Notes: a model not told the origin generated them from the sequence alone. A stretch of 45,720 bases of DNA from Dehalococcoidia bacterium (GCA_041497735.1 JBGQHA010000001.1:1-45720); one strand, 5' to 3'. Positions 35,778 to 45,615 are shown, counted from the stretch's first letter. A program made the numbers and translations.

Positions 35778-35888
35778 ATGCCCGACGCACCGCTCGCGAG
35801 CGTGATCATCCTCGGCTACTGGGGCCGCGCGTTCGTCGATGGCTGCCTCTCCTCGGTGCTCGACCAGGAGCAAGGAGACGTCTTGTGA
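35778..35888 (+). pseudogene. 36-codon remnant of a GT2 glycosyltransferase N-terminus
   Basis: Hand translation: MPDAPLASVIILGYWGRAFVDGCLSSVLDQEQGDVL*. This is the first beta-alpha unit of a WbbL-like GT2 (compare VYIVVVNWNGWQHTVRCLKSLQ at 14765). It starts at TAGATG and ends in GTGA, which overlaps the next start. Confidence 0.5.
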
Positions 35889-36763
35889 TCTCCGTCGTCA
35901 TCCCAACCAAGAACGAAGCTGAGCGCATAGGACCCTGCCTGGAGGCGATTGCTCGCCAGCAACTGGATGATCACGACGTTCAGGTCATAGTGATCGATTC
36001 CGGATCGGAAGACGACACGGTGCAAATCGCCGAGGCGCACAGCGCGACCGTGCATCGCATTACTGCCGAGGAGTTCGGGCACGGCCGCACGCGCAATCTT
36101 GGCGCATGCCTCTCGAATGGTGAGGCGATCGTATTCTTGAATGCGGACGCCGAGCCGGCCGGTGAGCGCTGGCTGTCCGCGCTGATCACGCCGTTGAACA
36201 AGGATAAGGTCGTAGCCACTTATTCACGCCAGGTCGCCCGTCCCGACGCCAACCCTTGGGAGGCCAGCCTGCTTGGTCATCTCTATCCGGCCACGCCAGC
36301 CACCTGGTCGCTGGCGCACGCGCCTAAGGGCCTTCGCGTGGTCTTCAGCACCGTCGCGGGCGCCGTCACCCGACAGGCCTGGGAGCAGCACCCCTTTGAC
36401 CACACGATCGACATCGCCGAGGACCAGCAATGGGCAGAGGAGACACTGCGCTCTGGGTACTCAATCTGCTATACACCGGACTCGGTGGTTGTCCACTCGC
36501 ACAACTACGGTTTGCGCGACAGCTGGATCCGTTACCGTCGGCTGGGGCGCGTCCGGGCTACACGAGTCTCCACCGTGGCTGGCCCCGGACTCGGGCTCTC
36601 CTCCTCTCTGGCCTTAGCGCGTTTAGCTGCCAGCGATGTCCTTGGCGAGCTGCGCCGCGGCCATGTAATGAGCTCTCTCCACGCCGGCGCCGCCAACGGG
36701 TCACGCATACTTGGCTACACAGCAGGCATAGCCGAAGGGCGCCTTCGCGTCCGAAAGAAGTGA
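35885..36763 (+). CDS. GT2 family glycosyltransferase
   Basis: GTG at 35885 with AGGAG 7 nt upstream; the track ORF from 35111 is a shadow extension over the previous gene. ISVVIPTKNEAERIGPCLEAIARQ ... VIVIDSGSEDDT ... VFLNADAEP. Confidence 0.8.
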   Translation: MISVVIPTKNEAERIGPCLEAIARQQLDDHDVQVIVIDSGSEDDTVQIAEAHSATVHRITAEEFGHGRTRNLGACLSNGEAIVFLNADAEPAGERWLSALITPLNKDKVVATYSRQVARPDANPWEASLLGHLYPATPATWSLAHAPKGLRVVFSTVAGAVTRQAWEQHPFDHTIDIAEDQQWAEETLRSGYSICYTPDSVVVHSHNYGLRDSWIRYRRLGRVRATRVSTVAGPGLGLSSSLALARLAASDVLGELRRGHVMSSLHAGAANGSRILGYTAGIAEGRLRVRKK

Positions 36764-36837
36764 GCGGATAAGACAGGTGAGGCGCCGGTGCCTGCGCGGC
36801 TGTGGACGCGCAGCGCGGCGACGAGGTGAGGGCGGAC

Positions 36838-37818: not shown

Positions 37819-38453
37819 CCGAGACCTACGGCGCGAAGCGGCACTACCAGCGCCAGGAGATCGCTGCAGCGTATGATGACGCGCGGTTTCGCGGTCTGCG
37901 CGGCCGGTTCGTGAACCTACTCGAGCGGCGGCTCCTGATGCGCGCGATCGCCGGTCTGCCACACGGTGCGCTTGTGCTCGACCTGCCGACCGGCACGGGA
38001 CGGATGGCGCGCTGGCTCACGGAGGCCGGCTACCGCGTTGTCGGCACGGACATCTCGCTCCCCATGCTCGGTCGGGCGCGCGCGCTCTCGACCCAAGCGG
38101 CGCTCGTGCGCGGCGAAGGAGAGCGGCTGCCGTTCGCGGACAAGAGCGTCGATGCCGCTGTCTGCTTCCGGCTGCTGTCGCACCTGCCACGCGAGGCGCG
38201 CATTGCCGTGCTGCGCGAGATGGCCCGTGTCGCGCGAGAACGTGTCGTGGCCGTCTACCAACCGCATCGCGTGGCGGTCTGGTGGCTCGTGTACGGCCTG
38301 CTGCTGCGAAAGCCGGTGCCGCGCTACTACGTCTCCGCGGCAGATCTCGAGCAGGAGTTTGCGGAGAGCGGACTGCGTCCGGTTCGGAGCCACGCGCTGC
38401 TGCGAGGCCTGTTTATGGAGCGGGCGTACGTGCTGGCGCCCTCGCGTCGCTAG
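37815..38453 (+). CDS. Class I SAM-dependent methyltransferase (Methyltransf_11)
   Basis: The GTG overlaps the kinase stop (GTGA at 37815-37818). VLDLPTGTGRMARWL ... GTDISLPMLGRAR ... SVDAAVCFRLLSHL. Confidence 0.85.
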   Translation: MTETYGAKRHYQRQEIAAAYDDARFRGLRGRFVNLLERRLLMRAIAGLPHGALVLDLPTGTGRMARWLTEAGYRVVGTDISLPMLGRARALSTQAALVRGEGERLPFADKSVDAAVCFRLLSHLPREARIAVLREMARVARERVVAVYQPHRVAVWWLVYGLLLRKPVPRYYVSAADLEQEFAESGLRPVRSHALLRGLFMERAYVLAPSRR

Positions 38454-38642
38454 TACGGGGTCACGTTCATCTGCATGGGCTGTGACTGACCGGGCGGGAT
38501 GGCAGAGAGCGTGAGTCCTGCGATTGGTACATCAGTGTCGAGCTTCTGGACGATCTCGACTTTGTGCAGCCCCGCTGTGAGTGAGAACGTTGCTTCCAGT
38601 TGGTCCGGCCCCGAAAGCGGCGTCCGTTCCGACGCCACCTGC
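38425..38642. repeat. Diverged direct repeat R1, copy a (3' end of the methyltransferase gene plus a PA14 fragment)
   Basis: Aligns by eye with 39499-39717. Example: GCGTACGTGCTGGCGCC...GCTAGTACGGGGTCACGTTCATCTGCATGG against GCGTATGTGCTGGCGCC...GCTAGTACGGCGTCACGTTCATCTGCATGG. Long shared runs include GGTACATCAGTGTCGAGCTTCTG and GGCCCCGAAAGCGGCGTC. Confidence 0.8.
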
Positions 38643-39371: not shown

Positions 39372-39498
39372 GATCCGTCAAGAGAGCGACCCCGGTCGTG
39401 TCATTCACAGGTACATCGTAGTCACTGCTAGATCGAAGATGACTGCACACCATGCCGGTGTGCGTCACAGCCTGCCGCGCGGCATCTGCAGCAATCGC

Positions 39499-39717
39499 GC
39501 GTATGTGCTGGCGCCCGTACGGCGCTAGTACGGCGTCACGTTCATCTGCATGGACTTCCCCTGGCCCGGCGCGAACGCCGAGAGCTCTATTCCCGCGAGT
39601 GGTACATCAGTGTCGAGCTTCTGCACCAGCTCGAGCGTGTGGGGCCCCGCTGTGAGTGAAACCGTGGCCCCCAGTTGGCCCGGCCCCGAAAGCGGCGTCT
39701 GTTCTGACGCCACCTGC
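39499..39717. repeat. Diverged direct repeat R1, copy b (last about 10 codons of a methyltransferase plus the intact 3' end of the 919-aa gene)
   Basis: See copy a. Includes the relic reading frame AYVLAPVRR*, matching AYVLAPSRR* at the end of 37815-38453. Confidence 0.8.
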
Positions 39718-42284
39718 GCGCCGTCGACCAGGAGCGTCACGGTGCCGGCCGGGAAGTCTGCGCGCAGCGTGTAGTCACCCGGTTGATCGACGTGCCAGAC
39801 GGTGCGCCAGCGCTCCTCCGTCACGATCGGCTCCGATGACGTCGTGCGCGCAGCCGCCGTCAGCGGCGCGGTTGAGACGAAGTGCGGCTCGAAATCAAAA
39901 CGCTGGGTGATCTGCTGCTGCGGACCGCCCGGCAGCCCGAGCGAGCGCTGCTGCACCCAGCCGGCGATCGATGACATCGGGAAGAGATCTTGTGCCAAGA
40001 CGGGGCGGTCTCGGTCATCGGGCGATGTCCACACGAGGCGAACGCTGCCGCCTGCGTGTTGCTTTTCGAGCACGATGTCGACCTGATGCCATCCGGCGAC
40101 GAGATCGATCACTTGGTCCCGTTGCTGCCCCGGTCGCGTGTCATAGACGATTCGGTTGTCAATGCTAATGACCAAAGGATCGTCGGTCTGCGCATGGAGG
40201 CTCGCCGAACTGGACGTGCCCGAGTAGTAGACAAGCCCCTGCCACTGCACCATGAATGGTGGGAGAAGCGGCAAGCCCGCCTGGTCCCACGAGAGGTCGT
40301 TCACCTGATCGACGCGACTGGGTTCTGGCCCAGCGTTGAAGGCCGTGTAATTTGCGAGCAGGCCTGTCGGGCTCAGGTCATTCGCGCTTGCGAAGTTGTA
40401 CTCGACATACTCGTACCCCTGCTTCGTCCCGCCGCCGCGCCGGCTGGGCTCGCCGAGCGACGGGTACGCCTGACGCAGGTGCGCAATGGTGTCATCGATC
40501 TTCCCAAGCGGATCTGCGACCACGAGCGTGACCGGCCCCGGCGGTATGCCGTGTAGCGGCAAGGCCTCCTCCGCTGCGGGCACGGCTTCGCCGGCCAGGT
40601 CGTGGCAGACCCAGACGAAGTCGCCCCAGGCGCGCGTCTGCGCGTCGAAGCTGTCACGACGCTGCGCGAAGCCATCCAGCCCCCCGTCGCCGCTGTACGC
40701 GACGGTGTAGTTGGCGTTCGGACGCCCCTGCAGGTCGTGGCAGACCGAGTAGATCATCGCCCTCTCGCCGCCGTAGCTCTGGGCAACGACGCTCGACGGC
40801 GCCACCTGCCGGAAGAGCATGTCGGCGTTCCACCAGAACGCGAACGCCGCGCCGGCCACGAGCAACGCGCCGAACGCCCTCGCGCCGCGTTGCGTGAAAC
40901 GCCGGAGCACGAGGCGACGCGCGTCGTCCAGGAGAAACGCGATGAGCGCGATGAGCACCGGCACGAGCGTGATGAACTTCCACGGCCCGAAGTCCTCCAG
41001 CAGCAAGGCTCCCGCGCCGATGCTGACGAGAACCCAGCCCGTAAACAGCGCGCGGAAGCTGCGGAACGCAAACACGACGCCGGCCACGAGGCCCGCCAGC
41101 GCCAGCCAGCCCGTCAATGGATCGAGCAGGTCCTTGCCCGGGATGTCGCGCGGCGGCGACGTGGGGTACTCGTTCGGGCCGACGGGGAGGAAGATCTGCG
41201 CCTCCCACTTGAGTTGCGTCCGCCACTTGCTGGCGATTCGATCGCCGGCGCGGCCGCCCTCCTGCCGGTGCACGGAGGTCAGGTAGAGGTCATAGCCCTT
41301 GTGTGTGCCGACGATCAGTGGCACGAGCACGACCGCCGTTGCCATCAGCGCGATGATGAGCGGCTGCCACGCGACGCGTGCCAGCGCGCGCGCGCGCGCC
41401 CAGGCAGCGCCAACGGAGATCGGCGCTCGCAGGAGCACTTCGCGCGCGGCGGCCGCGCCGAGAAAGAGCGCGCCGACGATCGGCACGGCCTTGAACGGCT
41501 CGTATTCGTATGACAGCAGCCCCGCCAGCACGCCGGCGGCGAGCAACCACAGGGGGTTCTTCGTCTTGAGCCCGCGCACAAGCACAAGCGCGAACAGCAC
41601 GGCGTAGATCGTGCCTTCGGAAGCCTGGCGCGCGCGCAGCGACGGCCACCAGGCCGCTGCGTAGAGCGCCAGGCCGAACAGCGCGACGGGCACGCTCACG
41701 AGCTCGCGGAGCAGGAAGTAGAACGCGATCAGCGTGATGATGCTCATCACGACGAAGAAGAAACGCAGGCCGAGTGTGTTCTCGCCGAAGACGGCGAAGC
41801 CCGCCGCGCTGCCCCAGCGCGTGATCAGGAAGTTGAGCGGCCGCATGCCCTGCAGGGCGCGATAGGCGACGCCGCCGTTGATCGCCTCCTCGCAGCAGAG
41901 GCCGTCCGACGGCGGCAGCGAGGTCTGATAGCGATAGACGCGCATGAACACGCCGAAGGCGAAGATGCCCGCGAAGAAGAGGACCTCGACCCAGTGGGCG
42001 CGCCACATCTCGGCCAGCGCGCCTGCGCGCCAGTGCGGGCGCGCTGGCTGGTAACTGAGCGCCGCGAAGACAAGCGCCAGCAGCGCCAGGCCCAGCCAGG
42101 GCAGCGAGGCATCGAAGTTGTCCAGGACGAGGGTCGTGCGCCGGGGACTGTCGTTGAGGATGCGCGCGCCGTTGTAGGCGAAGCCGGCCGCCGCCAGCAG
42201 CGCGACCGCCTGCACATGCGTTCGGGCCGGACGCCAGGCAAAGAATCGAGGGCCAGCGCCGTTCGCAGGCGGGCGATCGCTCAA
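39525..42284 (-). CDS. GT-C-like polytopic membrane glycosyltransferase fused to two C-terminal PA14-like beta-sandwich domains
   Basis: TTG start (LSDRPPANG...). The N-terminal roughly 560 aa hold many TM helices, with first-loop motif DGLCCEEAINGGVAYRALQG. PA14-like 1: FMVQWQGLVYYSGTSSSASLHAQTDDPLVISIDNRIVYD...LVAGWHQVDIVLEKQHAGGSVRLVW. PA14-like 2: GDYTLRADFPAGTVTLLVDGAQV...LTAGPHTLELV. Confidence 0.7.
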   Translation of the reverse strand: MSDRPPANGAGPRFFAWRPARTHVQAVALLAAAGFAYNGARILNDSPRRTTLVLDNFDASLPWLGLALLALVFAALSYQPARPHWRAGALAEMWRAHWVEVLFFAGIFAFGVFMRVYRYQTSLPPSDGLCCEEAINGGVAYRALQGMRPLNFLITRWGSAAGFAVFGENTLGLRFFFVVMSIITLIAFYFLLRELVSVPVALFGLALYAAAWWPSLRARQASEGTIYAVLFALVLVRGLKTKNPLWLLAAGVLAGLLSYEYEPFKAVPIVGALFLGAAAAREVLLRAPISVGAAWARARALARVAWQPLIIALMATAVVLVPLIVGTHKGYDLYLTSVHRQEGGRAGDRIASKWRTQLKWEAQIFLPVGPNEYPTSPPRDIPGKDLLDPLTGWLALAGLVAGVVFAFRSFRALFTGWVLVSIGAGALLLEDFGPWKFITLVPVLIALIAFLLDDARRLVLRRFTQRGARAFGALLVAGAAFAFWWNADMLFRQVAPSSVVAQSYGGERAMIYSVCHDLQGRPNANYTVAYSGDGGLDGFAQRRDSFDAQTRAWGDFVWVCHDLAGEAVPAAEEALPLHGIPPGPVTLVVADPLGKIDDTIAHLRQAYPSLGEPSRRGGGTKQGYEYVEYNFASANDLSPTGLLANYTAFNAGPEPSRVDQVNDLSWDQAGLPLLPPFMVQWQGLVYYSGTSSSASLHAQTDDPLVISIDNRIVYDTRPGQQRDQVIDLVAGWHQVDIVLEKQHAGGSVRLVWTSPDDRDRPVLAQDLFPMSSIAGWVQQRSLGLPGGPQQQITQRFDFEPHFVSTAPLTAAARTTSSEPIVTEERWRTVWHVDQPGDYTLRADFPAGTVTLLVDGAQVASEQTPLSGPGQLGATVSLTAGPHTLELVQKLDTDVPLAGIELSAFAPGQGKSMQMNVTPY

Positions 42285-42451
42285 GGTGCGCTGTCTATCG
42301 GTAGAGGCATCGCATTCCCCGCGTGCGCGGCCGCGGCTGTAGAAGAATAGCGCTACACGTCCCAGCGCGCTTCACCCGAGGAGGAAGACCACTCATGACA
42401 GGCAAACCAAACCGAGACGGCTACCGAAGTGTGGCACCGTACCTCGAGGTC
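42176..42451. repeat. Diverged direct repeat R2, copy a (GT-C 5' end, divergent intergenic region, VOC N-terminus)
   Basis: AGGCGAAGCCGGCCGCCGCCAGCAGCGCGAC...GTTCGGGCCGGACGCCA... aligns with 43597 onward. Homology runs through the intergenic region (GCGGCTGT.GTAGAA.AATAGCGCT) into the first 18-19 VOC codons. Confidence 0.75.
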
Positions 42452-42547
42452 GTCGACAGCGTCTACGAGCGCGCGCTGGCGGCAAGGCCGACGAGTGGCC
42501 TCAGCTTCCGCCGACCGGGGCACCGTTCCCGCGGCGGCGGCCTGTGA
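42395..42547 (+). pseudogene. Degenerate VOC/glyoxalase-family gene remnant (N-terminus fused to an internal piece)
   Basis: MTGKPNRDGYRSVAPYLEV aligns with MVKPIPDGYHTVTPYLLV of the intact gene at 43810. The following VDSVYERALAA resembles DVDAVYKRAVAAG about 60 residues further into the intact protein. The rest is unrelated and overlaps the convergent methyltransferase. GAGGAGG RBS is retained. Confidence 0.55.
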
Positions 42548-43328
42548 CGATCCAGTTCTCCCGCTGGCCAAGCCGGGCGTGGCGCTGTTCCCTCTGCTCC
42601 GTCCGTATCTCCACCGTATCCAGGCCGCATGACTCCAGGCAACGCCGGACCTCGTCCTCGGTAAACACCACACCGAACCACGTGCCGCCTCCCTCCCGCC
42701 GCCGACTTCCGCCTTCGTCCTTGGCTACGTCGAACCGCAACGTTCCACCGGGCTTCAGAACGCGCGACCCCTCTTGAAGATACCGTAACACGAACCGCTT
42801 TTCGGGTATGTGCTGGAAGACGCGCCAGGAAAAGCAGAAGTCGAAATACCCGTCCGGAAAGGTCGCCAAAGAGCCGTCGCTCTGTTGGACATGCACGTTG
42901 GCGAGGCTGCGCAATCGCTCGCTGCATTGCGTGATCATCTCCTCTGAGATATCGACACCGTGGACTTCTGCGAAGCGGCGCGCCAGCGGCTTCAGCAGAC
43001 GGCCGAGGCCGCAACCGATTTCGAGTACCCGACTATCCGGTGGAAACGAGAGGCCCTTCAAAATGTGCGCCTCGACTTCCTGCTTGCCGGACAGGTCGAA
43101 CTCCTCTTCGCTCGCCCAATAGTCGGGCGCGACGTAAAAGCGGGCCCCCTCGCGCGCACGCTGGTCCCAGTCTTCAGCCATGGATCCACTACCTAAGAGC
43201 AAGCCCTTGGTGGGATGCATGGACGTGCTGTAGAGACGGCTACGCACTGGCGTGCGCTCCAGAATTCTCAGCGCCAGGGTGCTCACCCTGGTACTTAGTA
43301 CCGCCTTCAGAACCTTCTCAACACGCAT
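42501..43328 (-). CDS. Class I SAM-dependent methyltransferase (inserted cassette, lower G+C)
   Basis: RVLEIGCGLGRLLKPLARRFAEVHGVDISEEMI ... YFDFCFSWRVFQHI ... LKPGGTLRFD. The start is uncertain (43328, 43220 or 43181). An extended -10 TGCTATACT lies upstream at 43407-43399. 32/60 G+C at 42781-42840. Confidence 0.8.
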   Translation of the reverse strand: MRVEKVLKAVLSTRVSTLALRILERTPVRSRLYSTSMHPTKGLLLGSGSMAEDWDQRAREGARFYVAPDYWASEEEFDLSGKQEVEAHILKGLSFPPDSRVLEIGCGLGRLLKPLARRFAEVHGVDISEEMITQCSERLRSLANVHVQQSDGSLATFPDGYFDFCFSWRVFQHIPEKRFVLRYLQEGSRVLKPGGTLRFDVAKDEGGSRRREGGGTWFGVVFTEDEVRRCLESCGLDTVEIRTEQREQRHARLGQRENWIVTGRRRGNGAPVGGS

Positions 43329-43398
43329 CGCAGCCTTATCTGTGAACGCTCACGCGAATTCGCCCCACCTCAGCGATGGAGAGCCAGCGGGCGGCGGC

Positions 43399-43407
43399 AG
43401 TATAGCA
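43399..43407 (-). promoter_or_regulatory. Extended -10 element TGCTATACT for the methyltransferase cassette
   Basis: Reverse complement of AGTATAGCA at 43399-43407, about 70 nt upstream of the first in-frame ATG (43328). Confidence 0.4.
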
Positions 43408-43432
43408 GGGCATCTAACATCATCACGTCGGG

Positions 43433-43596
43433 GGCTCGCTTCGCTCGCAATCACGCAGGTCTTCCTCACGTCCGACCTCTCGTCCTTCGTCACAAGCGGC
43501 GCCATCCCGGTCGAGGGCCGCATGCTGGCCGCCGGTGGCTGGCTCCACCACAAGACCTTGGGCTGGACGACAGACCCAGCGGCATTCAAGGAACAA
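43433..43596 (+). pseudogene. 3' fragment of an SDR oxidoreductase gene (paralogous to 44208-45062)
   Basis: VFLTSDLSSFVTSGAIPVEGRMLAAGGWLHHKTLGWTTDPAAFK aligns with VFLASDLSSFVTGVTIPVEGGMLAAAGWLHHPTLGWTTDPSVFK. The nucleotide alignment is clear from 43458 to 43596. Confidence 0.7.
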
Positions 43597-43702
43597 AGGC
43601 GAAGCCGGCCGCCGCCAGCAGCGCGACGGCCTGGACCTGGGTTCGGGCCGGACGCCACGTAGCGATCGAGCGGCGCAGGGCCGGGCGCGCGGGCTGGCTC
43701 AA
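43597..43702 (-). pseudogene. 5' fragment (about 35 codons) of a GT-C gene, paralogous to the start of 39525-42284
   Basis: Hand translation of the minus strand from TTG 43702: LSQPARPALRRSIATWRPARTQVQAVALLAAAGFA, against LSDRPPANGAGPRFFAWRPARTHVQAVALLAAAGFA at 42284. It is truncated where it abuts the SDR fragment. Confidence 0.6.
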
Positions 43703-43767
43703 AGGGCGGTGTCCATCGTCGGCATCCCAGTGGCTCGAGCTGTCCGCGTTCACTGGCGCGGCTGTTG

Positions 43768-43773
43768 TAGAAT
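43768..43773 (+). promoter_or_regulatory. Possible -10 hexamer TAGAAT upstream of the VOC-SDR genes
   Basis: TAGAAT lies 37 nt upstream of the ATG at 43810. The duplicated copy at about 42336-42347 reads TAGAAGAAT (3-nt insertion). No good -35. Confidence 0.3.
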
Positions 43774-43809
43774 AGCGCTCGCTACCGCATCGAGCGAAGG
43801 AGGGTCACC

Positions 43810-44208
43810 ATGGTCAAGCCAATACCCGATGGGTATCACACCGTCACGCCGTATCTGCTCGTGAACGATGCCGCCAGGCTCATCGAGTTCCTGAAGGACG
43901 GCCTCGGCGCCGAGGAGATCGGGCGCATGCCCGGGCCGGACGGCGCCATTGCGCACGCCGAGGTGCGCATCGGCAACTCGGTCGTCATGATGGGCCAGCC
44001 CGGCGAAGGGAACCCCGGCGCTACAACGTCGGCGCTGTACCTCTATTTCGAGGACGTCGACGCGGTGTACAAGCGCGCCGTAGCGGCCGGCGGCGTATCG
44101 ACGGAGGAGCCGGCCGATCAGTTCTACGGCGACCGCCGGGCCGGCGTGAGGGACCCCTGCGGCAACACCTGGTGGCTCGCCACCCACATCAAAGACGTGC
44201 CGACGTAA
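43810..44208 (+). CDS. VOC family protein (glyoxalase/bleomycin-resistance fold)
   Basis: MVKPIPDGYHTVTPYLLVNDAARLIEFLKDGLGAEE ... HAEVRIGNSVVMMG ... FYGDRRAGVRDPCGNTWWLATH. GAAGGAGGG RBS. Confidence 0.85.
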   Translation: MVKPIPDGYHTVTPYLLVNDAARLIEFLKDGLGAEEIGRMPGPDGAIAHAEVRIGNSVVMMGQPGEGNPGATTSALYLYFEDVDAVYKRAVAAGGVSTEEPADQFYGDRRAGVRDPCGNTWWLATHIKDVPT

Positions 44209-45062
44209 TGGACGCCTCTCGCGTATCGCTCGCGGGCAAGGTCGCGATCGTCACCGGCGGCGCGCGCGGGCTCGGGAAGGGCTTCGCGCAGGGGCTGGCG
44301 GCGTTCGGCGCGAAGATTGTCATCGCCGACCGGAAGGAAGACGCCGCGCGCGAAACGGAGCGCGAGCTGCGCGACGCCGGCGCCGACGTGATCGCGATCG
44401 GCTGCGACGTGCGCGACGGCGCGCAGGTGCGCCGCATGGTCGACGAGGCTGTGCGCGCGTTCGGCGGCGTCGACGTTCTCGTGAACAACGTCGGCGGTAT
44501 CTATCTCGGTAAGGGCCGGCCGCCGCAGTTGCCGTTCCTGGAGCAGAGCGAGGAAGACTGGGACGACTCGTACGCGCTGAACTTGAAGAGCGTGTACCTG
44601 TGCACGTCGGCTGCGGCGAAGGCGATGGTGGAGCAGGGGCGCGGCGGCAGCATCATCAACGTCGCCTCCAGCGAGGCGCTGCGCTGCGCGCCCGGCTACG
44701 CGCCGTACGCCGCCTACAAGGCCGCGATCGTGAACCTGACGCGAACGCTGGCGCTGGAGCTGGCGCCGCAGCGCATCCGCGTGAACTGCATCGCGCCGGA
44801 CGCCATCCCCACTGAGGCCCTCGTACGCAGCTACCCGCAGCTCGCCACCGACGAGGCGTACGCGCACCACATCCCGCTCGCTCGCGCCGGCACCGTCGAT
44901 GACGCGGCGGGCGTGGCGGTCTTCCTCGCGTCCGACCTCTCGTCCTTCGTCACCGGCGTCACTATCCCCGTCGAGGGCGGCATGCTCGCCGCGGCCGGCT
45001 GGCTGCACCACCCAACGCTCGGCTGGACCACGGACCCGAGCGTGTTCAAGGCAACTAGGTAG
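44208..45062 (+). CDS. SDR family oxidoreductase
   Basis: The ATG overlaps the VOC stop (TAATG). VAIVTGGARGLGKG (TGxxxGxG), NNVG, YAAYKAA (YxxxK). The track ORF starts 36 nt earlier, inside the VOC gene. Confidence 0.9.
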   Translation: MDASRVSLAGKVAIVTGGARGLGKGFAQGLAAFGAKIVIADRKEDAARETERELRDAGADVIAIGCDVRDGAQVRRMVDEAVRAFGGVDVLVNNVGGIYLGKGRPPQLPFLEQSEEDWDDSYALNLKSVYLCTSAAAKAMVEQGRGGSIINVASSEALRCAPGYAPYAAYKAAIVNLTRTLALELAPQRIRVNCIAPDAIPTEALVRSYPQLATDEAYAHHIPLARAGTVDDAAGVAVFLASDLSSFVTGVTIPVEGGMLAAAGWLHHPTLGWTTDPSVFKATR

Positions 45063-45108
45063 GCTGCCGGCTTACTTCGTAAAGCATCGCGAATCGAGGT
45101 TTAAGACC

Positions 45109-45615
45109 ATGCGGATCGAAAACTTTGTACAGTACTGGGAACACCTACACCGCATGACGGTCGACTTTGTGAAGGTGGTTCCTAACGACAAGTGGGACTT
45201 TTCACCCGACCCTCCTGGAAGGATCGGGCGCGCAAAGGTTCCGCTCCGAATAGGCGACGGCTTTGCGCCGTTCTGCAAGCAACTGCGGCATGTGGTCTGC
45301 GTACGGGGCGTCTACAACGCCGCAATGGTCACGAAAAAGGCAGACTTCACGCAGAAGCACAATCACTACAGCGGCCCCTTGACTCGTGAGGCGCTGCTCG
45401 CAGCGCTCATGGATAAACAAGGACAATTCCTGGCCACGCTGGAATCGCTGGATGCTGGGACGCGGATTAATTTCGGCGAAACGGCGTTCACGTTGGATAA
45501 CTTCACATGCGAAGTCATCCAACACGAGGCAATTCACCACGGTCAGTGGAGCGTCTATGCTTCGCTGGGAGAGTTCGAGACGCCGCTTAGTTGGCGTGCG
45601 TCCTGGGGCTTATGA
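45109..45615 (+). CDS. DinB-family (DinB_2/YfiT-like) four-helix-bundle protein
   Basis: The ATG at 45109 (MRIENFVQYWEHLHRMTVDFV) lies behind GAGG; the upstream part of the track ORF overlaps the SDR gene. The C-terminal EVIQHEAIHHGQW is typical of DinB-like metal-binding His triads. 29/60 G+C at 45121-45180. Confidence 0.7.
   Translation: MRIENFVQYWEHLHRMTVDFVKVVPNDKWDFSPDPPGRIGRAKVPLRIGDGFAPFCKQLRHVVCVRGVYNAAMVTKKADFTQKHNHYSGPLTREALLAALMDKQGQFLATLESLDAGTRINFGETAFTLDNFTCEVIQHEAIHHGQWSVYASLGEFETPLSWRASWGL

Follow-up and report, generated by a model that had tools for sequence, protein, structure and literature searches.

A methyltransferase gene among gene relics and diverged direct repeats beside a glycosyltransferase gene of a Dehalococcoidia bacterium

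The stretch of DNA analysed here, the window, is a whole contig of 45,720 nucleotides from the metagenome-assembled genome (MAG) of a Dehalococcoidia bacterium. It harbours an intact GT-C glycosyltransferase gene (39525–42284, minus strand), a 919-aa open reading frame with a Pfam PMT_2 match. The protein is 87% identical to that of the relative G002; the synonymous difference from G002 is 19.6% for this gene and 14.6% for its neighbours. Public annotations place the start at a GTG at ~42215, which gives a protein of 896 aa. On the plus strand three intact genes occupy 43810–45615 and encode a VOC protein (43810–44208; Pfam Glyoxalase), an SDR (44208–45062; adh_short_C2, 4e-64) and a DinB protein (45109–45615; DinB_2). 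VOC and SDR share 94% amino acid identity with G002, and the VOC-SDR-DinB block is colinear with that of G002 at 93.8% nucleotide identity.

Between the GT-C gene and VOC-SDR-DinB lie 1,421 nt that are found in all sampled contigs of the source species and are without counterpart in all six relatives compared (G002, G004, L062, L063, G003 and L064). Four of these, G002, G004, L062 and L063, display the arrangement that a preliminary description of this DNA had proposed as ancestral, with the GT-C gene divergent from VOC-SDR(-DinB) and no methyltransferase; G003 and L064 have a VOC-less form of the GT-C/SDR junction, likewise methyltransferase-free. None of the six contains a full second copy of the VOC, SDR or GT-C pieces, in keeping with the earlier view of these pieces as relics. 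The insert comprises a diverged GT-C 5' end with promoter region and VOC start, an internal VOC piece, a methyltransferase gene (MT), an SDR tail and a GT-C stump.

The diverged direct repeats first noticed at an offset of 1421 nt are borne out by self-alignment: 42176–42354 (copy a) and 43597–43779 (copy b) are identical at 147 of 191 positions (77%, gaps counted), the offset drifting from 1421 nt at the start to 1425 at the end because of indels. Within the 2.8-Mb genome the repeats match each other only (BLAST E values 8e-26 and 5e-28). Copy a opens with a conserved 61-nt GT-C 5' coding segment (WRPARTHVQAVALLAAAGFA; 42176–42236, minus strand) that is 93% identical to copy b. Its first 31 nt are identical (42176–42206 = 43597–43627), its four differences all fall on third codon positions within 42207–42219, and after these diagnostic sites identity falls abruptly to ~60–65%. 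The intergenic region IG_a (42237–42394) is strongly diverged from IG_b and from G002 outside a conserved core, GGCTGTAGAAGAATAGCGCT (42336–42355), which is accompanied by a GGAGGA ribosome-binding site and shares 92% identity with L063 across 40 nt. IG_b (43658–43809) overlaps the former GT-C leader of the stump, is 98% identical to G002 and serves VOC-SDR-DinB.

In the VOC wreck (42395–42547, plus strand), which converges on the 3' end of MT, codons 1–19 (42395–42451) are fused to decayed codons ~80–115. The union of an N-terminus with an internal piece had been recognised previously and stands: 42444–42483 matches 44048–44087 at 33 of 41 positions (P ~0.005 versus random segments of the genome). 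The immediate passage into unrelated sequence does not stand, as permissive gaps extend the homology to ~42515–42538 (score 64; null maximum 59 in 1000 trials) and the decayed VOC continues under the 3' end of MT. With homology still recognisable, essential parts lost and no Pfam match to the wreck, this is in all likelihood a pseudogene. In public annotation it appears as a 50-aa ORF, with a gene call in L033–L040.

MT (42501–43328, minus strand, 275 aa) is predicted to be an intact, full-length class I SAM-dependent methyltransferase. It matches Pfam Methyltransf_25/11 (Methyltransf_25 at 1.8e-22, scoring 80.3 bits where the cut-off is 27), its alignment to homologues covers residues 1–265 with the invariant EIGCG.GR motif, and both termini are conserved (ENWIVT.RRRG). 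The best homologue shows 66% identity, and the collections searched contain none between 66% and 100%. A foreign origin, as initially proposed, is supported: source genome and G002 contain no homologue above ~38% identity, a level that concerns the SAM-binding core only, and the gene is accompanied by a hitch-hiking fragment of another locus. Its G+C content is only modestly lower (62.2% vs 66.8 ± 2.8% for long ORFs of the genome), and DinB, which is conserved in place, lies lower still at 56%. Members of the MT family reside in glycan clusters with LPG_synthase_TM, GT4, PMT_2 and other methyltransferases as neighbours; this context suggests a glycan-cluster tailoring enzyme with a putative glycan substrate.

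A conserved element upstream of MT (43395–43428, minus strand) contains the extended -10-like CTGCTATACTGCCG and matches L067 (811–844) at 28 of 34 positions, 5' of L067's 66% MT homologue; the element travels with the gene. A sigma-70 consensus scan itself found nothing. Next to the element is a 38-nt 5' coding fragment of the LPG_synthase_TM family (GLASLAITQVFL; 43430–43467, plus strand), identical at 33 of 38 positions to L067 542–579, where the matching ORF hits PF03706 (5.8e-13). LPG_synthase_TM is the usual divergent neighbour of the MT family, and L065 and L066 have the same neighbourhood. On its left side the cassette is joined no more than a few codons away from the MT stop. At the right junction the LPG_synthase_TM fragment is fused in frame to an SDR relic, and the overlap is a 10-nt microhomology, GGTCTTCCTC, which forms the first 10 nt of the relic.

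The SDR relic (43458–43596, plus strand) corresponds, by alignment to the intact gene, to its last 46 codons. That this piece duplicates the 3' end of the resident SDR was correctly seen (43458–43594 vs 44918–45055, 81% identical); its start had been set at 43433, but the homology begins at 43458, and 43430–43467 stems from a different gene. The relic is nearest to L064 and L063 and shares their FKE-type tail, as against FKATR in copy b and G002: it differs from L064, the closest sampled tail, at 15 of 120 nt and from the resident SDR at 22 of 120. It has 10 private changes ([6,1,3] by codon position) and carries a G-to-R replacement within the conserved VEGG motif. A 136-aa open frame occupies 43252–43662. 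In strains L033 and L035 a cluster of 29 SNPs extends over 44810–45134, with 20 third-position SNPs in the SDR at 44810–45005; such third-position tracts in SDR and DinB point to ongoing homeologous exchange.

At 43596/43597 the last sense codon of the SDR adjoins codon 36 of the GT-C stump (43597–43700, minus strand), which consists, by alignment to the GT-C gene and G002, of ~36 codons plus the former leader. Direct, colinear copies meet here, with offsets of ~1421 nt and ~1460 nt, and the junction has the topology to be expected of a tandem-duplication joint. The parental sites share GTAGGC (GTAGGCGA in the L063-type SDR tail) and GCCGGC; of the AGGC(G/T)A..GCCGGC microhomology suspected earlier, the joint itself retains AGGC only, which chance could yield.

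The two copies evidently differ in ancestry. Over the whole repeat copy b matches G002 at 237 of 243 positions (97.5%), and copy a is only ~70% identical to either (177/251 to copy b, 174/250 to G002). In the VOC start the differences between a and b are distributed [2,5,14] by codon position (P = 0.004), and 8 of 10 codons with an identical amino acid carry a synonymous change. This third-position bias argues for divergence as a working gene and not as a relic, and a relationship of a and b as recent sister duplicates is rejected on these figures. The stump differs from the working GT-C 5' end of G002 by 3 mismatches in 104 nt, with no indels, and is undecayed; the a-type relics have frame-breaking indels. 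The proportion of codons differing at the third position is 20% in the GT-C segment, 88% in the VOC start, 45% in the internal VOC piece and 32% in the SDR tail, all informative segments being short (30–140 nt). Such uneven divergence means that a single donor cannot account for all a-type pieces. No gene with an a-type VOC start was found in the metagenome and genome collections searched. Given the different ancestries, at least one inter-lineage recombination is needed as well.

On balance, the insertion is real and probably arose by a head-to-tail join, decay with cassette capture and recombination between lineages. The joined unit would have run from GT-C codons 1–36 through the bidirectional promoter region to VOC and SDR, and its tandem duplication would leave both VOC-SDR and the promoter region with a spare. 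Decay of that spare copy would have followed, VOC losing about codons 19–77 (~20–79 in aligned coordinates) and gaining small deletions, and a cassette of ~0.97 kb, copied by illegitimate recombination from a glycan locus with divergent LPG_synthase_TM and MT genes, would have replaced its middle. Copy b is orthologous to the locus of the closest relative, and the a-type pieces would go back to a lineage of greater divergence or to a copy of far greater age. Homologous recombination between lineages may have brought in the insert or renewed copy b, with a crossover inside or beside the 31-nt identical segment. The preliminary scheme of tandem duplication followed by methyltransferase replacement is preserved in its topology; plain duplication and decay in this lineage does not fit, as the ancestries of the copies differ. 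As no searched collection includes the a-type lineage or a closer MT (66–100%), donor and order of events are reconstructed indirectly. MT is co-directional with the GT-C gene and upstream of it, and it would now stand directly upstream with a putative promoter of its own. Since GT-C and VOC-SDR-DinB have each kept one promoter-region copy, the locus would have lost nothing.

It is possible, if less likely, that no duplication took place and that an 'MT haplotype' of another lineage, in which MT had replaced most of VOC-SDR, entered as a fragment. Entry could have been by homology-facilitated illegitimate recombination or by a single crossover of a circularised fragment, and the latter alone suffices to leave direct repeats of the homologous segment around the insert. 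Such an entry agrees with a copy a that is diverged throughout beside a copy b equal to G002, with the perfect 31-nt repeat at the two ends, beyond which identity falls sharply, and with the undecayed stump; moreover, a screen for this kind of recombination in E. coli recovered mostly single-crossover circle integrations that duplicated 109–950 bp of the homologous locus (PMC3240628). It requires, however, an SDR-less lineage, when the SDR is kept beside GT-C in 6/6 relatives, and the databases searched contain no 'MT haplotype'. The join at the last sense codon of the SDR, with its shared GTAGGC, is explained equally well by unequal exchange.

Improbable is a tandem duplication in this lineage with decay in place and replacement of the middle by MT, without later exchange. 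It accommodates the junction topology and the colinear direct repeats and would be neutral, because the spare copy is redundant. It leaves unexplained that the functionless stump and IG_b remain 97.5–98% identical to G002 when the greatest divergence lies in the working IG_a, that differences between a and b are biased to third positions, that the SDR relic is nearer to L064 than to the resident SDR, and that the relatives lack any trace of a second copy. Ordinary paralogy, in which the pieces would belong to working second genes, is most improbable: the 50-aa VOC stretch and the frame of 136 aa are open, but the pieces contain no Pfam domain, the VOC piece lacks ~60 internal codons and has frame-breaking gaps, the SDR piece is limited to 46 codons with the altered VEGG, and the stump to 36 codons. 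Weaker still is an assembly artefact or chimeric contig, a concern raised at the outset and natural for a fragmented MAG of 480 contigs: misassembly is very unlikely since eight independent contigs from separate samples and assemblies (from three NCBI MAGs, four JGI metagenomes and a Logan run, with strains among them that differ by 0.5%) have the identical, colinear mosaic at 99.5–100% identity over 1.4–9.2 kb, and the repeats, at 77–81% identity, are too diverged to mislead an assembler.

No terminal inverted repeats were found at the ends of insert or cassette, and an ORF and Pfam scan of the insert revealed no transposase gene, the ORFs being MT and VOC, SDR and GT-C pieces only. An IS element, transposon or integron cassette is rejected on these grounds, as the preliminary description had held for classical mobile elements. 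Its view of the right border as a hotspot of gene gain is plausible: the R1 insert is likewise missing from G002, L062, L063 and L064. At both GT-C borders (R1, 38.4–39.7 kb, and the present insert) a self-contained gene sits inside a diverged direct repeat, and the outer orphan fragment is the one that matches the sister species. That this represents a general IS-free route by which Chloroflexota glycan loci gain tailoring genes seems doubtful. Such a route would begin with the duplication or import of a border module, made up of a gene end and a promoter region. Its spare copy would offer neutral ground on which a gene could be captured at microhomologies, and homologous recombination would then spread the product.

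On the favoured history the insert is, as far as its sequence tells, an ordinary outcome of recombination, both illegitimate and homologous, and a new example of known locus evolution; it reveals no new mechanism. Its value is that of a reconstructable case, in which a tailoring enzyme appears to have been added to a surface-glycan cluster without mobile-element genes or loss of resident genes, and in which the relics keep a record of the joints, of part of the gene that once adjoined the cassette, and of the empty site of the sister species. It also carries a warning for annotation, where the gene call of 50 aa and the frame of 136 aa should be read as relics and MT as a species-specific addition.

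Mosaic O-antigen and capsule loci carry gene remnants where modules meet. The present locus resembles them in having acquired a tailoring gene on the edge of a glycan cluster, and in its remnants, its atypical G+C and its tracts of recombination between lineages; it differs in belonging to an uncultured member of the Chloroflexota, in a cluster centred on GT-C/PMT_2 and in joints without IS or H-repeat elements. Short-junction tandem duplications of bacteria, reviewed by Reams and Roth, have a head-to-tail joint at a microhomology of a few bases, and the present join, with a unit of ~1.4–1.5 kb, has that head-to-tail topology. Such duplications are usually unstable and identical, whereas the present arrangement occurs in every contig sampled, its copies have diverged, and a cassette has gutted one of them. 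In homology-facilitated illegitimate recombination foreign DNA is integrated beside a homologous anchor, with the other end at a short G+C-rich microhomology (PMC3240628; de Vries and Wackernagel 2002 and Prudhomme et al. 2002, as cited in PMC5361080). Single-crossover events of this kind leave part of the homologous locus directly duplicated around the insert. In the present case, too, foreign DNA lies next to a homologous anchor, has a G+C-rich microhomology at its other end and is flanked by direct repeats. Those events were laboratory ones with known donors, whereas no donor was found for the present insert; its repeats are homeologous (70–93%) and not identical, and a prior tandem duplication explains its joint as well. 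In the T6SS effector-immunity arrays of Vibrio cholerae and in Rhs 3'-end arrays, orphan relics result from sequential displacement (PMC5361080). There, as here, an incoming module lies beside a conserved gene end, with orphaned pieces of resident genes and no mobile-element genes; those orphans are toxin-immunity genes under conflict-driven selection, whereas the present ones, in a glycan locus, are pieces without function from VOC, SDR and GT-C genes of housekeeping type.

An insert of 1,421 nt lies between the GT-C gene and the divergent VOC-SDR-DinB genes, at the right-hand edge of an extensive glycan gene cluster. In G002, a member of the same genus with a GT-C protein 87% identical at the amino acid level, the locus, joined from contigs C3 and C88 via an exact 55-nt overlap, reads GT-C <- -> VOC-SDR-DinB with nothing between. 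The same simple layout is present in the relatives G004, L062 (GT-C 69%) and L063 (GT-C 68%), and the arrangement that the preliminary description had proposed as ancestral is thus found in four genomes. Two further relatives, G003 and L064 (GT-C 66%), have GT-C divergent from SDR, and VOC is absent between the two genes (L064:3515-3679; G003:C214 (L011) 1660-1798). In L064 it has shrunk to a 20-codon mini-ORF, MAVRPIPDGYHNATPYLLVK, a VOC start (…PYLLVK) joined to the SDR start by TGATG coupling; its left breakpoint follows a PYL.V motif, as does that of the VOC remnant in the window. None of these six relatives harbours a second copy or the methyltransferase (MT) gene at the locus, and the best match to MT in G002 is 38% identical over the SAM core only. 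Hence the window carries an insertion. Its partial copies are relics, as had been supposed, and not ordinary second copies.

The layout is very unlikely to be an assembly artefact. A total of 13 public contigs encode the identical 275-aa MT protein; the eight that were compared with the window (three from NCBI MAGs, four from JGI metagenomes and one from a Logan assembly) align colinearly with it along 1.4-9.2 kb, at 99.5-100% identity, and include strains 46 SNPs apart. The window makes up all of contig C1 in a fragmented MAG (2.84 Mb, 480 contigs, 65.7% G+C). Homologues of its GT-C bear labels of Chloroflexi/Dehalococcoidia MAG proteins. The contig end (45580-45720, 141 nt) is identical to the first 141 nt of C321 from the same MAG, so the two contigs adjoin in the assembly graph.

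Self-comparison recovers every repeat reported previously. The GT-C 5'/intergenic repeat pairs 42176-42354 (copy a) with 43597-43779 (copy b) at 147/191 positions with gaps, the first 61 nt being 93% identical, and the SDR tail repeat pairs 43458-43594 with 44918-45055 at 81% identity; a BLAST search of the region across the entire genome recovered these two (E 8e-26 and 5e-28) and no other internal match. A VOC internal piece at 42444-42483 matches 44048-44087 (33/41), a score equalled by 0.5% of random genome segments, and with permissive gaps this homology reaches ~42515-42538 (score 64; null maximum 59 in 1000 trials). Pfam confirms GT-C (PMT_2), class I SAM methyltransferase, VOC/glyoxalase, SDR and DinB_2 domains and returns no domain match for the relic pieces. 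The VOC remnant of copy a (42395-42547), which public annotations list as a 50-aa gene, retains a GGAGGA site and a conserved promoter core and converges on MT, overlapping its last 47 nt; any transcript of it would run antisense to the 3' end of MT. Two other matches were rejected: an inverted one between 42523-42552 and 44246-44275 ('IVTGRRRG' vs 'IVTGGARG' of SDR), considered as an inverted SDR N-terminal relic, scores at chance level and is accounted for by ENWIVT.RRRG, a C terminus conserved across the MT family, and a possible target duplication (42574-42591 and 44908-44925) is likewise at chance level (P ~0.27).

MT itself (42501-43328, minus strand) is full length, with an N-terminal extension and the C-terminal ENWIVT.RRRG motif conserved in homologues, the closest of which is 66% identical. 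It is not paralogous to the other methyltransferases of this genome (<=38% identity, SAM core only). The lower G+C noted earlier is modest (62.2%, ~1.6 SD under the genome's long-ORF mean) and by itself argues weakly for capture; the flank is the stronger evidence. Positions 43395-43428 match the region upstream of the 66% homologue on contig L067 (28/34, with CTGCTATACTGCCG exact); this is MT's own upstream element (CTGCTATACT), a putative promoter. Adjacent to this, 43430-43467 matches the 5' coding part of the divergent neighbour in L067 (33/38), an LPG_synthase_TM protein (PF03706, 5.8e-13) whose family regularly adjoins this MT family in glycan clusters. This fragment (GLASLAITQVFL) continues in frame into the SDR relic (VFLTSDLSS...), and the two homologies overlap in a microhomology of 10 nt, GGTCTTCCTC. 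On the left, the joint is no more than a few codons from the MT stop and falls over decayed VOC sequence. The insert has neither inverted repeats nor short target duplications, and no recombinase gene.

Some side observations concern these contigs. L067, a public ENA contig, opens with a 131-nt inverted fold-back copy (1-131) of its own 541-671, 99% identical and probably an assembly artefact, which alters the apparent orientation of the LPG_synthase_TM gene. Strain contig L033 carries 10 substitutions within a 59-nt stretch (43451-43509) where the LPG fragment meets the SDR relic, all to A or C; they bring the sequence no nearer to copy b and resemble assembly noise or, alternatively, local hypervariability.

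MT is upstream of GT-C and co-directional with it, downstream of the GT-C-side promoter copy left orphaned in IG_b, the intergenic region of copy b, and its own upstream element is conserved. GT-C would retain the intergenic region of copy a (IG_a) and VOC-SDR-DinB that of copy b. A sigma-70 consensus scan found no promoter, terminator-like matches are no better than shuffle level, and Rfam gave no match. From the genomic company of its family, MT is most likely a glycan-tailoring methyltransferase.

Judged from their sequences, copies a and b are not sisters. In a three-way alignment copy b (GT-C stump, IG_b and VOC start) agrees with G002 at 237/243 positions, whereas copy a agrees with copy b at 177/251 and with G002 at 174/250. 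Between the copies the first 31 nt are identical, the next 30 nt hold four third-position differences, and identity then falls to ~60-65%. Differences in the VOC start are distributed 2, 5 and 14 by codon position (P = 0.004 vs equal rates), and 8/10 amino-acid-identical codons differ synonymously, compared with 15% of such codons between this genome and G002; this is the signature of a gene that diverged over a long time while functional. The SDR relic is closer to L064 (15/120 positions differ) than to the resident SDR (22/120); its ten private changes (6, 1 and 3 by codon position) indicate decay, and its tail is FKE-type as in L063, copy b and G002 having FKATR. The functionless stump shows three mismatches and no indels over 104 nt against the working gene of G002; the relics of copy a type contain frame-breaking gaps. 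Private changes were too few to date the stump relative to the SDR relic, although their direction fits.

The head-to-tail joint must stem from an unequal exchange (tandem duplication) or else from an imported fragment that circularised or was joined illegitimately. In the proposed sequence of events tandem duplication would come first, an order favoured because it never removes SDR, which lies next to GT-C in 6/6 relatives; the cassette would then be captured into the spare copy, and inter-lineage homologous recombination would account for the different ancestries. A serious rival is direct import of an 'MT haplotype' by homology-facilitated illegitimate recombination or by one crossover with a circular molecule; in E. 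coli such events typically leave a duplication of 109-950 bp of the homologous locus (PMC3240628). No donor emerged when metagenome and genome collections were scanned with degenerate patterns. The earlier scheme, tandem duplication with the middle replaced by MT, survives in part: the joint fits and the cassette flank points to capture, but plain in-lineage duplication does not fit, since the stump would then have been a relic for as long as the gutted copy or longer, and the data show the reverse.

The recombination step of the proposed sequence has a parallel among strains. L033 and L035 carry 29 SNPs in 325 nt (44810-45134) and almost none elsewhere in 9 kb; 20 of the 29 lie at third codon positions in 44810-45005 of SDR, and those within SDR are spaced by multiples of 3. 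The cluster is a homeologous recombination tract, and such tight clusters among strains of this species show that homeologous exchange is active here. On its left side the tract ends at the G002 contig break (C3/C88 overlap, window 44766-44818). Strain contigs L036 and L037 have a group of 5 SNPs packed into 12 nt (44139-44150) within the 3' part of VOC, either a short conversion tract or local error. With 56% G+C (GC3 68%), DinB (45109-45615) is the lowest in the region, yet no other gene is so similar to G002 (5.6% synonymous difference vs ~15% elsewhere), which suggests recent exchange between the two species. Farther left, 35870-36786 does not align to G002 (33-54% in forced alignment) between flanks 86-93% identical and is another replaced segment of the glycan cluster.

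A further mosaic, R1 (38397-38642 and 39472-39717), encloses a 1,075-nt lipoprotein insert between the MT212 gene and the GT-C 3' end that is absent from G002, L062, L063 and L064. Its orphan GT-C 3' fragment (38459-38538) is 94% identical to G002 and the working 3' end (39534-39613) 78%, the same pattern, in which the orphan matches the sister species, as at the GT-C 5' insert. Reading the two inserts as the flanks of a single event that replaced the resident GT-C agrees neither with the gene order, in which the lipoprotein lies outside the MT212-tail relic, nor with the divergence of the GT-C body; the R1 switch point is only marginally supported. A single 7.7-kb foreign block (35.9-43.6 kb) imported together with GT-C is rejected because synonymous difference to G002 (GT-C 19.6%, MT212 17%, p338 18%; baseline 14.6%) is far below that of the pieces of copy a type.

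Short-junction duplications and homology-facilitated illegitimate recombination are known outcomes with a pattern like that of this insert, and the relics resemble the orphan-relic arrays of Vibrio T6SS loci (PMC5361080). The insert is a well-preserved new example from an uncultured phylum and not a new kind of system.
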